Part shown: piece by piece, positions 22,773-26,195 of the stretch
Numbering within the stretch: the stretch's first letter is position 1
Layout: every line of letters begins with the position of its first letter
Sequence record: OQ990039
Length of the DNA: 64,000 nt
Source: Escherichia phage SUT_E420
Reading direction: 5' to 3' (one strand)
Made by a program: the position numbers and the translations under genes
Notes under the pieces: generated by a model
What the model saw: only the letters and a program-made list of their open reading frames with translations
The model's database searches: none
Told to the model about the DNA's origin: nothing

Positions 22773-23081
22773 ATGAGCGAACAGGTAAATCAAAACTATG
22801 AAGGACACGTTGATGACCAGTCCATCATACTTTGGGAGAAGGAGGGGGAACAAGTAAGATTAACAGTATCTGAATTTCGTGGGAATCTATACATGGGTAT
22901 TCGTTACTGGCTTCTTGATATTAATGATGAATGGTTTCCAACGAAATCTGGCTTCTCTTTTCCTTACACCCTAGAAACAACATCACAGCTTTTCTATGCG
23001 TTTACACAGATTCTTAGCGAATCTGAGGTTTTACATGAAGTACAGAAACGAGCTGAAGAACTCAAAGCCAAGAATGCCTAG
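22773..23081 (+). CDS. PC4-like ssDNA-binding protein
   Basis: 102 aa; LTVSEFRGNLYMGIRYWLLDINDEWFPTKSGFSFPY matches the PC4/YdbC ssDNA-binding domain pattern. Confidence 0.55.
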   Translation: MSEQVNQNYEGHVDDQSIILWEKEGEQVRLTVSEFRGNLYMGIRYWLLDINDEWFPTKSGFSFPYTLETTSQLFYAFTQILSESEVLHEVQKRAEELKAKNA

Positions 23082-23108
23082 TTCTTGGCTTTTTCTTTAT
23101 AAATGTAT

Positions 23109-23137
23109 TTGCTTTCAACTCAGTTTTGTTATATAAT
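23109..23137 (+). promoter_or_regulatory. T5-type early promoter
   Basis: -35 TTGCTT (23109-23114), 17-nt spacer, -10 TATAAT (23132-23137). Confidence 0.5.
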
Positions 23138-23167
23138 ATTTATATAAATTAATGAGAGGGTTGCAAA

Positions 23168-23440
23168 GTGAAAAAGATAAGTATAAGTACACTTAAACCT
23201 TTCCCGTACATCGGACAGCCTCTTATACTTATGTGGGAGGGGAAGATTAATGGAGAAAAGTATACTAAAACTAGAAGTGGGTATAAGCTGATTTCACTTC
23301 ATTACGAAAAAGAAGTATTAGTAGCTGAAATATACTCTCCGTTGTCAGATAGGCTAGTAAAAACTACATATTTGCATCTTTGCAAAAATTATACATGGCA
23401 CGGATCCACTAGACAACCCACATACTATGAGGCAGAATAA
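23168..23440 (+). CDS. Hypothetical small protein
   Basis: 90-aa ORF with GTG start after GAGGG SD, immediately upstream of ligA. Confidence 0.4.
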   Translation: MKKISISTLKPFPYIGQPLILMWEGKINGEKYTKTRSGYKLISLHYEKEVLVAEIYSPLSDRLVKTTYLHLCKNYTWHGSTRQPTYYEAE

Positions 23441-24412
23441 ATGACCAATGTAAAAGACTTTATTAAACGTTGCCAAGAAGCATATTATCAAGGTATGTCT
23501 TTAATCTCTGATGAAGAGTATGATTGCCTGGTAAAACGCTTTCCGTTAGAAGAAGAGATCGGACCTAAGGGCGATATTCCACATCTGTATCGTATGTATT
23601 CTTTACAGAAAGTTTATTATAATCGTGGAGATAAACCTCCGTTTAACCCGTTAGGTCAAGTAGAAACTGATAAGTTAGATGGTTGTGCAATTTCTCTGTT
23701 ATATATTAATGGCGAATTTGTTCAAGCACTAACTCGTGGTAATGGTATTCTAGGGAATGATGTCACAAGCAACGTAAGATTGCTGAATATCCCTAAAAAG
23801 ATTTCCCAAAAAGTACCTACTCAAATCACTGGTGAAGTTCTAATTACAAAAGAAGTAGAAAATAAACGTAACTTTGCCTCTGGTGCTATTAACCTCAAAG
23901 ATAGTGATGATTTTGTACAACGTATCGGAGAAGGTGGTTTAATCTTCGTTGCATATGGTATCCAGTGTTCTGCTGAATCTGTAGGTATTACAGAAGCATA
24001 TTTAAAAGATATGCTTTGGCTGGAGAATGAGAACTTCTTAACAGTTGTTAATGTGCGTTCCTTCTTTAAATGGATTCCGACGGATGGTAAAGTTGTTCGT
24101 ATTAATGACAACAACAAATTCTTCCGTGAAGGCTGGACTAATAAATTCCCTCGTGGAGCATTCGCTATTAAAGAGGATGAAGAAGGCGAGGTTACAACTC
24201 TTACTAAAGTTGAATGGCAGGTAGGGGCTTCTGGTAAAGTAACTCCAGTTGGTTATTTCGAACCGGTAATTATTGATGATGCTACAATTGTTAAAGCGAC
24301 TCTTAATAACGTTGATTATATTAACTCTCTTGATCTAGAGATCGGTTGCCAGATTCGAGTGATTCGTGCTGGTGGTGTAATCCCGTGCATAGTAGAGCGA
24401 GTATACGAGTAA
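23441..24412 (+). CDS. ligA: NAD-dependent DNA ligase, N-terminal (adenylation/OB) fragment
   Basis: 323 aa; adenylation motif TDKLDGCA (KxDG) and OB-fold region; ORF ends where a full LigA would continue. Confidence 0.85.
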   Translation: MTNVKDFIKRCQEAYYQGMSLISDEEYDCLVKRFPLEEEIGPKGDIPHLYRMYSLQKVYYNRGDKPPFNPLGQVETDKLDGCAISLLYINGEFVQALTRGNGILGNDVTSNVRLLNIPKKISQKVPTQITGEVLITKEVENKRNFASGAINLKDSDDFVQRIGEGGLIFVAYGIQCSAESVGITEAYLKDMLWLENENFLTVVNVRSFFKWIPTDGKVVRINDNNKFFREGWTNKFPRGAFAIKEDEEGEVTTLTKVEWQVGASGKVTPVGYFEPVIIDDATIVKATLNNVDYINSLDLEIGCQIRVIRAGGVIPCIVERVYE

Positions 24413-24462
24413 TACATAACCCTTTGCTACCCATCTACCATATCGGAATTATAAAGTGGTTA

Positions 24463-24491
24463 TTGACATTTTCGCCGCTTAGGTATATACT
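24463..24491 (+). promoter_or_regulatory. Sigma70-like promoter inside the ligase split region
   Basis: TTGACA (24463-24468), 17-nt spacer, TATACT (24486-24491). Confidence 0.45.
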
Positions 24492-24555
24492 AGTATCATT
24501 CAGTTGAGGGATAGAAAGTTATGGCGAGGGTAAGCAAAGTTAGTTAAAATTGTAG

Positions 24556-24584
24556 TTGCTAAATGCTTAAATACTTGCTATAAT
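24556..24584 (+). promoter_or_regulatory. T5-type early promoter upstream of the ligase C-terminal fragment
   Basis: -35 TTGCTA (24556-24561), 17-nt spacer, -10 TATAAT (24579-24584), then TTTATATAAATTGA. Confidence 0.5.
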
Positions 24585-24611
24585 ATTTATATAAATTGAT
24601 AAGGAAGAAAT

Positions 24612-25385
24612 TTGATGAAAATCGAAATTCCAACACAATGTCCCTCTTGTGGTTCTAAGCTAGATCTTGTCAACGGACAATTATTTTGTCGGAATAAGTC
24701 CAACTGTCCAGCGCAATCAAGTAAGTTAATTGAGAACTTCTGTACAAAAATGAAGTTAAAGGGTTTTGGTCCAAAAACTATTGAGAAGCTGGAGCTGACG
24801 AAGATTTCAGAACTATTTTACCTAACCGAAGAAGATTTGGTTAGAGCCGTGGGTAGCAAGGTTGCCGCTAAGTTAATTAGCGAATTAAATACTAAAGTTC
24901 GCGGAGACATTGACTTTGGTTCAGTTCTCGGTTCTTTAGGAATCCCTCTAATTGGAGAGGTTGCAGCAAAGAAATTATCCCAAAATTGCACTAGCTTCCA
25001 CGATGTGAAGGCTGACGGCAAGGCTGGAGAAAATTATAAAGCCTGGCTAAATTCCCCACAAGGCAAGGATGTTATCGAATTACCGTGGAAATTCTCAACT
25101 GGTGCTAAAGCTAAAACCGTCGTTACTGATGATTTAGTTGCCCAGCCAAATGGAATCGCGGTATGTATTACCGGATCTTTGCAAGACTTTGCAAATCGAA
25201 CGGATGCAACAAACTATTTAGAAGGTCTAGGATATACGGTTAAGAAATCTGTTACCAAAGACGTCAAATACCTAATCTGTGAGGATGAATCGAAGCGTTC
25301 TTCCTCATCTTATAAGAAAGCCGAAACGAATGGGATAGAAATCCTGTCGATTAAAGAACTATTGGAGAAAAATAATAATGTCTAA
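24612..25385 (+). CDS. ligB: NAD-dependent DNA ligase, C-terminal (Zn-finger/HhH/BRCT) fragment
   Basis: 257 aa; Cys4 zinc finger CPSCGS...CRNKSNCP, then HhH-like and BRCT-like segments. Confidence 0.8.
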   Translation: MMKIEIPTQCPSCGSKLDLVNGQLFCRNKSNCPAQSSKLIENFCTKMKLKGFGPKTIEKLELTKISELFYLTEEDLVRAVGSKVAAKLISELNTKVRGDIDFGSVLGSLGIPLIGEVAAKKLSQNCTSFHDVKADGKAGENYKAWLNSPQGKDVIELPWKFSTGAKAKTVVTDDLVAQPNGIAVCITGSLQDFANRTDATNYLEGLGYTVKKSVTKDVKYLICEDESKRSSSSYKKAETNGIEILSIKELLEKNNNV

Positions 25386-26145
25386 ACTGAACTGGAACGT
25401 AGAAGGTGTAACCGAGTCTCTGAAAGCAAAAGCCACTGCTCTGGGTGTTTCTGTAATCTCTCAAGAACAAGTAGCCGCTATCGCCGCTGAACTGGCTGCT
25501 GAAACTGGCAAAGATGTTACCGCTCGCTCTGTTGGCTCTAAACTGCGTAAAGAAGGTTTTGAAGTACAGAAAGCTAACGAAGTACAGAAATCCCCGTGGA
25601 CTCCTGAGCAGGAAGCTGAACTGGTTGATTTCCTGAACGCTCATGCTGGTCAGTATACCTATGCTGAAATCGCTGCTGCTGTAGCTGGTGGTCAGTTCGG
25701 TGCTAAGCAGGTACAGGGTAAGATTCTGAGCCTGGAAATGACCGCTTCTGTTAAACCAACTGAAAAAGCTGCTGCTGTTCGTTCCTTTACTCCGGATGAA
25801 GAAACTGATTTTGTTAATCAGGTTGTTGCTGGTGCTACTATTGAAGCTATCGCTGCTCACTTCGGTCGCAATATTAAGCAGATCCGTGGTAAAGCTCTGA
25901 GTCTGCTTCGTGAAGGTCGTATCGCTGCTATGCCGGTACAGGAAACCTCAAGTGCTAAAACTCGTGAAGATCTGTTAGAAGGTCTGGATCTGGTTAACAT
26001 GACTGTTGCTGAGATCGCTGAGAAAACTGGTAAATCTGAGCGCGGTGTTAAATCTATGCTGTCTCGTCGTGGTCTGGTTGCTAAGGACTATGATGGTGCC
26101 GCTAAGCGTGCTAAACTGGATGCAAAAGCTGCGGCTGCTGAATAA
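25378..26145 (+). CDS. Abundant DNA-binding protein with tandem HTH-like repeats (T5 D5-like, tentative)
   Basis: 255 aa; four repeats of an A-I-A...G-K HTH-like unit; extreme host-optimal codon usage. Confidence 0.5.
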   Translation: MSKLNWNVEGVTESLKAKATALGVSVISQEQVAAIAAELAAETGKDVTARSVGSKLRKEGFEVQKANEVQKSPWTPEQEAELVDFLNAHAGQYTYAEIAAAVAGGQFGAKQVQGKILSLEMTASVKPTEKAAAVRSFTPDEETDFVNQVVAGATIEAIAAHFGRNIKQIRGKALSLLREGRIAAMPVQETSSAKTREDLLEGLDLVNMTVAEIAEKTGKSERGVKSMLSRRGLVAKDYDGAAKRAKLDAKAAAAE

Positions 26146-26162: not shown

Positions 26163-26195
26163 AAGGGGAGGGGGCTATGCTCCTTCCCCTTTTTG
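26163..26195 (+). terminator. Strong intrinsic terminator after the D5-like gene
   Basis: 12-bp stem (with two G-U pairs), CTATG loop, TTTTT tract. Confidence 0.5.

Follow-up and report, generated by a model that had tools for sequence, protein, structure and literature searches.

Bacterial NAD+-dependent DNA ligase (LigA), as known from Escherichia coli (PDB 2OWO) and Thermus filiformis (1DGS/1V9P), is a single chain with the domain order Ia, nucleotidyltransferase (NTase), OB fold, zinc finger, HhH and BRCT. T5-like phages carry their ligase in two genes instead: ligA and ligB of bacteriophage T5 (AAU05253 and AAU05254) were listed in a 2013 paper (PMC3632103), and the genome announcement of phage Stitch likewise gives a ligA/ligB annotation (PMC4319617). 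Split genes are also known from T4-like phages, where mobE divides nrdA of Aeh1, and gene 43 is interrupted in phage 25 by a seg gene and in 44RR by an untranslated spacer (PMC2988022, PMC3045599). Here we analyzed the ligase locus in a 64,000-nucleotide stretch of the T5-like Escherichia phage SUT_E420 (Tequintavirus; sequence record OQ990039), hereafter called the window, to which all coordinates refer unless another locus is named and in which every feature described below lies on the plus strand. The locus is the known two-gene NAD-dependent DNA ligase of T5-like phages, long annotated and in itself nothing new, and it shows no material difference from ligA/ligB of T5 or from the orthologues in other Demerecviridae. 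We put the probability at roughly 0.9 that its two products together form the NAD+-dependent DNA ligase natural to T5-like phages (Demerecviridae), an enzyme of two subunits.

The region containing the gene pair (23100-25700) is 100% identical to that of Escherichia phages SUT_E1520, SUT_E520, T5_ev212 and EC148, and it has matches in 472 phage records. GenBank names the two genes ligA and ligB, with the products described as NAD-dependent DNA ligase subunits A and B in T5_ev212, and the order ligA, promoter-bearing gap, ligB, D5, helicase, primase is kept throughout the annotated regions of relatives. An earlier note, made from the window's sequence without database searches, had reported two separate open reading frames (ORFs) at 23441-24412 and 24612-25385, assigned the first to the adenylation and OB domains and the second to the zinc finger, HhH and BRCT domains, and concluded that the enzyme would have to work as a two-subunit ligase. 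Both ORFs are present as described, both domain assignments are borne out below, and that reading of the locus was essentially right overall, the feature being the long-annotated ligA/ligB of T5.

The first gene, ligA (23441-24412), encodes a protein of 323 amino acids (aa) comprising a putative short domain Ia, the adenylation (NTase) domain and the OB fold, as indicated by Pfam, a PDB match and the GenBank annotation. Both larger domains score above their Pfam cut-offs (PF01653 DNA_ligase_aden, 83.5 bits versus a cut-off of 27; PF03120 DNA_ligase_OB, 78.7 bits versus 32.9), and the KxDG motif with the active-site lysine appears in the translation as K78-L-D80-G81. Residues 214-320 align with residues 284-390 of E. 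coli LigA (2OWO; phmmer), and the N-terminal 45 aa contain a YY...SDEEYD pattern that matches E. coli Y22, H23, D32, Y35 and D36 by eye, HMMER giving no significant alignment there; in the LigA family, the NMN-binding residues of domain Ia determine specificity for NAD+. Domain Ia and the NTase domain are shorter than in E. coli, the 323 aa of the phage protein covering about 400 aa of the bacterial one.

The second gene, ligB (24615-25385), encodes 256 aa comprising a Cys4 zinc finger, an HhH region and a BRCT domain, again on the evidence of Pfam, a PDB match and GenBank. The BRCT domain is recognized by Pfam (PF00533, 32.7 bits versus a cut-off of 21.3), the zinc-finger cysteines C9, C12, C25 and C31 are invariant in six of six diverse orthologues, and the HhH region is weak in Pfam, scoring under the cut-off (HHH_2, 24.5 versus 27). 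LigB aligns with residues 402-529 of E. coli LigA (phmmer, E = 1e-9), with the fourth residue of the ORF paired to E. coli residue 402. GenBank places the start at ATG 24615, and a ribosome-binding site that we read from the sequence, AAGGAAG (24601-24607), lies 7 nucleotides (nt) before it; the TTG start at 24612 used in the earlier note gives a protein of 257 aa. We also observed a 9-nt length polymorphism (about 25090-25110) in the linker before the BRCT domain: LigB is 256 aa long in the window and a few other phages, and 259 aa long in most Epseptimavirus and Tequintavirus relatives.

Aligning both halves to full-length bacterial LigA places the end of phage LigA at about E. coli residue 393 and the beginning of LigB at about residue 400, with about six linker residues absent and no domain lost. 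On this alignment the ligase is divided at a domain boundary, in the linker that joins the OB fold to the zinc finger. The LigA-family domains do not stand on one polypeptide in the window, where a stop codon (24410-24412) is followed by a gap of 202 base pairs (bp) and a new start at 24615. Compared to bacterial LigA, the phage ligase shares the KxDG motif, the four cysteines and the domain order, its domain Ia being putative, and differs in consisting of two polypeptides, in the shorter linker and in its low overall sequence identity.

Support for a two-subunit enzyme comes from PDB entries 9HU3 and 9I5I, which contain both chains of a Providencia phage orthologue, chain A of 339 aa bearing the name DNA ligase (NAD(+)) and chain B of 248 aa bearing the name DNA ligase subunit B. 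Chain 9hu3_A aligns with LigA residues 4-321 (E = 3e-103) and chain 9hu3_B aligns end to end with LigB (E = 1.5e-81), and the split point is the same as in the window. The LigB proteins of Providencia phages PSTCR5 and vB_PreS_PR1 are 100% identical to chain B and about 56% identical to LigB of the window; no publication for these entries was found in the literature that we searched. Given what the LigA domains are known to do, and given the two-chain entry of the orthologue, we infer that LigA and LigB may form a non-covalent complex. LigA would be the catalytic core responsible for adenylation and catalysis, with its short domain Ia, its nucleotidyltransferase domain carrying the KxDG lysine and its OB fold, and LigB would be the DNA-binding part, or DNA clamp, with its zinc finger, HhH region and BRCT domain, the two associating non-covalently to seal nicks.

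To follow the split among relatives, we surveyed 80 IMG/VR loci plus GenBank loci, referred to by L numbers where they must be told apart. A separate ligA stop, a gap and a ligB gene were found in all 86 loci that hold both halves, down to 36% LigB identity, and none of these loci carries an unsplit ligase; the same stop-gap-start layout occurs in 428 phage records covering at least 80% of the region, and more than 450 T5-like genomes in all have the split. The reading-frame relation of the two halves varies among lineages (0, 1 or 2). A tblastn search with LigB matched 964 phage records, of which those at 42% identity or more belong to Demerecviridae and their relatives (phages of Escherichia, Salmonella, Klebsiella, Pectobacterium, Proteus, Providencia, Vibrio and Aeromonas), and those below 42% are only fused ligases of jumbo phages at 26-31% identity. 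A search of 5.8 billion proteins yielded no fused form among the best 120 homologues, which are 247-263 aa long except for two shorter ones (190 and 214 aa). Variable sites among 27 T5-like loci fall mostly at third codon positions in both genes (222 of 354 in ligA, 51 of 70 in ligB).

We then considered the DNA between the two genes, which the earlier note had given as a 199-bp spacer; the spacer is present, and with ligB starting at ATG 24615 it measures 202 bp rather than 199 (24413-24614). Among the 27 T5-like loci its mean identity to the window is 98.9%, compared to 94.5% for ligA and 97.7% for ligB, and it has 8.9% variable columns, compared to 36% in ligA and 18% in ligB. Our promoter scan found the two promoters that had been reported in it: P1 (24463-24491), TTGACA-17-TATACT, matching 11 of 12 consensus positions, and P2 (24556-24584), of T5 early type, TTGCTA-17-TATAAT with a TG extension, matching 10 of 12. 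P2 is preceded by AAAATT, reads TGcTATAAT at its -10 element and is followed by an ATATT discriminator, and PMC7472727 describes ATATT after the -10 element as characteristic of T5 early promoters. The window has 10 matches to the pattern TTGCT-N16-18-TATAATA versus 0.12 expected, and local alignment also recovered relatives of P2 elsewhere in the window. The literature search returned nothing relevant on T5 transcription starts. P2 might be the classical T5 promoter P(D/E20); its sequence did not turn up in the literature searched, and no conclusion here depends on this identity.

The two promoters persist across wide divergence. When the 178-202-bp spacers of six Demerecviridae lineages were aligned (T5, Klebsiella, Pectobacterium, Providencia and Aeromonas phages and locus L036), the -35 and -10 pairs of P1 and P2 were nearly the sole conserved blocks. 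A P2-like promoter stands about 30 nt before ligB in every distinct gap examined, and it is kept even in gaps of 68-107 nt and in gaps with inserted genes. Judged by this conservation, the spacer is a functional intergenic promoter region, and it owes its place among the best-conserved DNA of the locus to the tandem promoters that it provides for the ligB-D5 unit. The earlier proposal that ligB can be expressed independently is thus backed by the conservation of P1 and P2 across lineages rather than by transcript data. The P1-P2 interval is itself highly conserved among T5-like phages, with 4 variable positions in 64, beyond what the promoters explain. Between P1 and P2 lies a mini-ORF of 8 codons (24521-24547, MARVSKVS, with GAGGGA upstream) that is conserved among T5-like phages; we rejected it as a gene, as it is not conserved in the spacers of Klebsiella, Pectobacterium and Aeromonas phages.

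On the upstream side, a terminator-like hairpin (23064-23092; a 12-pair stem followed by a T-run) closes the preceding unit, and a T5-type early promoter, TTGCTT-17-TATAAT followed by ATATT (23109-23137; 23109-23138 as one of the 10 pattern matches), stands ahead of orf90 and ligA. The first of these genes, orf90 (23168-23440), is a conserved hypothetical gene lying directly against the start of ligA; it matches phrog_35018, a family without assigned function (E = 1e-48). Downstream of ligB lies D5 (25378-26145; ORF and annotation), which encodes the T5 DNA-binding protein tied to the early-to-late switch, and beyond it a strong terminator-like hairpin (26163-26191; a stem of 13 pairs, 8 of them G-C, and then a T-run) ends the ligB-D5 unit. 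The D5 ATG (25378) overlaps the ligB stop (25383-25385), with 8 nt shared by the two genes (25378-25385), which suggests translational coupling of ligB to D5. Nothing resembling a terminator turned up behind ligA in our scan, which makes co-transcription of ligB with ligA probable as well. In the arrangement that we propose, the promoter at 23109-23137 would drive orf90 and ligA, read-through past ligA would continue via P1 and P2 into ligB and D5 and stop at the 26163-26191 terminator, and P1 and P2 would start the ligB-D5 unit, giving ligB and D5 extra transcription. Read in this way, the sequence indicates that ligB is probably transcribed both with ligA, by read-through from 23109-23137, and from P1 and P2. 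Two side observations concern the flanking genes: the D5 product has weak Pfam matches to sigma-70 region 4 and helix-turn-helix families, and an extra ORF of about 200 bp, absent from the window, lies between orf90 and ligA in phage vB_EcoS_HZ_ZJUN2 (L002, 1842-2042) and in phages phA11, phC11 and oldekolle.

The spacer is also where some relatives carry additional genes, their longer ligA-ligB gaps holding extra ORFs. GIY-YIG endonuclease domains were found in the gap ORFs of Salmonella phage SP3, a T5-like phage (L033; Pfam E = 1e-5), of L084 (E = 7e-6), of L086 (E = 9e-5) and of L074, where the match is just under the Pfam cut-off (E = 1.7e-4) and is accompanied by a NUMOD-like domain. Salmonella phage vB_Sen_SG_WM_RUS_R2 (L088, hereafter R2) has an orthologue of the SP3 gene, 90.6% identical, in its gap, and L083 has an endonuclease gene directly upstream of ligB that is 38% identical to that of L086. 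Two T5-like phages of Salmonella and at least four environmental lineages thus have GIY-YIG genes in the gap, and the endonucleases of different lineages are only 21-38% identical. A second, related GIY-YIG gene lies about 1.1-1.8 kb downstream of ligB in environmental relatives (L074, 5365-6093; L084, 5096-5800; L086, 5383-6063; L085, 2209-2889; L077, 5393-6070), making the replication-module surroundings of these relatives rich in homing-endonuclease genes. Not all gap ORFs are of this kind: the ORFs in Vibrio phage gaps, which we considered as candidate mobile elements, are not endonucleases but a DprA-like gene, a crAss001_48-like gene and others without a family match. The DprA-like gene lies within the gap in Vibrio phage Cody (L005, 1452-2344) and upstream of ligA in Pectobacterium phage DU_PP_V (L006, 783-1346), and these differing positions indicate that accessory genes shuffle around the ligase halves.

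The gene of the SP3 type (L033, 2684-3340; L088, 1501-2142) was found in no other phage among 50,697 records. Annotations list this orphan GIY-YIG gene as hypothetical; its start and the ligA stop overlap (ATGAATAG), and its final 11 codons extend into the spacer that is standard for T5. Upstream of it, the last approximately 220 nt of ligA show 68-90% nucleotide identity to the window with the protein little changed, compared to 88-100% identity in 15 T5-like phages lacking the endonuclease, and the ligB side is unaffected by this divergence. A one-sided diverged tract of this kind is what co-conversion, or a cleavage-resistant form of the target site, would look like, and such tracts have been described for free-standing endonucleases (PMC2988022). 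We found no donor lineage for the SP3 ligA tail in our collection, the nearest sequence being that of phage Spc35 at 84.9% and all others being at 75% or below. Spc35 (L089, 1485-1520) has the standard 202-bp spacer and no endonuclease gene, together with an endonuclease-type version of the last 34 nt of ligA; this intermediate allele could have arisen by loss of the endonuclease gene or by co-conversion without gain of the gene, or it could be a resistant target allele. Free-standing GIY-YIG homing-endonuclease genes also enter the ligA-ligB gap, with the conserved 3' end of ligA as the likely target, and the window has the empty, endonuclease-less form of the gap, which is the common one.

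The window itself has no endonuclease ORF between the halves. It does contain a stretch (24419-24452) homologous to the last 11 codons and the stop codon of the SP3 and R2 endonucleases in alignments and by tblastn, which gave 9 of 11 identities for 24419-24451 (TLCYPSTISEL* versus A/TLLTPSTISEL*). The homology boundary falls at 24418/24419, and a conserved C-terminal KGWxLL motif straddles it. No endonuclease remnant beyond this 11-codon match was found in the rest of the window spacer. The match is a weak hint that the first 35 or so nt of the T5 spacer may derive from an endonuclease gene.

These genes bear on the origin of the split, for which T4-like phages offer the nearest parallels, with gene 43 as the closest precedent for the ligA-ligB gap. 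As in the T4-like split genes (Aeh1 nrdA/mobE, T4 gene 39/60 with mobA, and gene 43), the break falls at a domain boundary of an essential gene of DNA metabolism, some relatives have an endonuclease gene in the gap and others a non-coding spacer, and a diverged tract flanks the endonuclease gene. Unlike those genes, ligA-ligB has no known unsplit relative, its split is ancient and spans a whole virus family, its spacer has a conserved promoter function, and homing into its gap is putative. We regard as possible, though doubtful, an explanation in which an ancestral ligase gene was split by the insertion of a free-standing homing endonuclease, the T5 spacer being what remained after its loss, with promoters retained or acquired later. 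The fuller version, in which the gap is also an active homing site where endonucleases of the SP3 type cut the conserved 3' end of ligA in phages that lack them, this one included, and spread along with the recoded ligA tail, the ancient insertion split the ligase and about 35 nt persist as a remnant, seems to us equally tentative. GIY-YIG ORFs in exactly this gap in at least five lineages favor such an origin, as do the homology at 24419-24452 with its straddling KGWxLL motif, the variability among T5-like phages of the positions directly after the ligA stop (24413-24416), the resemblance of Spc35 to an endonuclease-type allele without its gene, and the precedents of nrdA/mobE in Aeh1 and of gene 43 (PMC2988022, PMC3045599).

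Several observations pull the other way. With no fused relative among the 86 loci or the best 120 homologues, the order of events cannot be set, as is likewise the case for gene 43 in T4-like phages (PMC2988022). Only 2 distinct T5-like phages of about 470 matched T5-like records have the gene, and both carriers have a foreign-looking ligA tail, a pattern more in keeping with recent arrival in a gene that was already divided than with ancestral presence. The low identity among the gap endonucleases suggests repeated independent arrivals, and the gaps also carry the unrelated DprA-like and crAss001_48-like cargo. The evidence for a remnant amounts to about three codons beyond the shared tail, and most of the spacer is promoter DNA common to all lineages. 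The suggestion in the earlier note that the spacer may be the scar of an excised mobile element is therefore only partly sustained: endonuclease genes in the same gap and a match of about 34 nt speak for it, and the conserved promoter DNA that makes up most of the spacer speaks against it.

Whatever the origin of the gap, the two halves might not act together, and we weighed the alternative that LigB functions independently, for example as a BRCT/HhH DNA-binding protein or a replisome-recruiting partner of D5, with LigA alone serving as a minimal ligase. The gene arrangement lends this some appeal, since ligB has promoters of its own, its suggested translational coupling is to D5 and not to ligA, and from the promoter layout it is probably transcribed more heavily than ligA. 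However, ligA and ligB are adjacent and co-occur in all 86 loci, the zinc-finger and HhH residues are conserved, and the PDB entry holds both chains, with chain B named by its depositors as a ligase subunit. In addition, the NTase-OB core of E. coli LigA without zinc finger and HhH self-adenylylates but is poor at sealing nicks, which argues against a LigA that suffices alone. We consider an independent LigB improbable and favor the two-subunit ligase.

Still less credible is a mechanism that rejoins the halves into one polypeptide after transcription or translation, whether by a group I intron, a split intein or ribosomal bypass in the manner of T4 gene 60, even though T4-like phages use such devices in split genes (PMC2988022). 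The spacer matches no Rfam family, intron families included, and shows no excess of RNA structure (fold z = -0.69), results that also rule it out as a structured RNA. Gaps of 68-76 nt in relatives consist of essentially one promoter, the frame relation of the halves is not conserved, LigA ends at the OB boundary and LigB starts at the zinc finger with no spare sequence for intein halves, and in the PDB entry the halves are two distinct chains, A and B. On the Rfam scan, the fold z-score, the short gaps and the protein termini, we rejected intron, intein and ribosomal bypass alike.

Finally, a sequencing frameshift or a decaying ligase pseudogene, favored by nothing more than the bare existence of two ORFs, is excluded for practical purposes by the presence of the split in all loci (86 of 86, and 428 records, of identical architecture in hundreds of independently sequenced genomes), the lineage-dependent frame relation and the third-position bias in both halves, and runs counter also to the ribosome-binding site and ATG of ligB, the retained catalytic and zinc-binding residues and a solved structure with two separate chains, confirming the split as real.

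Some points weigh against the two-subunit ligase and the picture of the locus built around it. The claims that the two proteins form a heterodimer and that nick sealing requires LigB rest on the chain composition of the PDB entries and on what is known of LigA domains; the literature searched offered no biochemical study of the enzyme from T5 or from the Providencia phages, only papers repeating the ligA/ligB annotation. The alignment of domain Ia was made by eye, the N-terminal local alignment by HMMER not being significant; promoter activity was judged from conservation and consensus and not from mapped starts; and the cleavage site is known for none of the gap endonucleases.

The database searches also turned up records that look mislabelled or contaminated. 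"Listeria phage LM 4-14-1" has a LigB 100% identical to that of the window, "Campylobacter phage A148" has a spacer 98% identical at the DNA level, and a 115-kb contig with the label Brucella melitensis encodes a LigB-like protein. The record of Salmonella phage STWB21 calls its LigB a "tail completion protein", which looks like a mislabelling.

The association of endonuclease genes with the ligA-ligB gap is a modest side result, of interest to phage biologists. A gap repeatedly occupied by endonuclease genes offers a natural system for the tolerance of a split essential enzyme, and it also informs how free-standing endonucleases use such sites. If an ancient endonuclease insertion did split the ligase, then among essential phage genes divided by homing endonucleases none would be an older or more widespread example than this locus.

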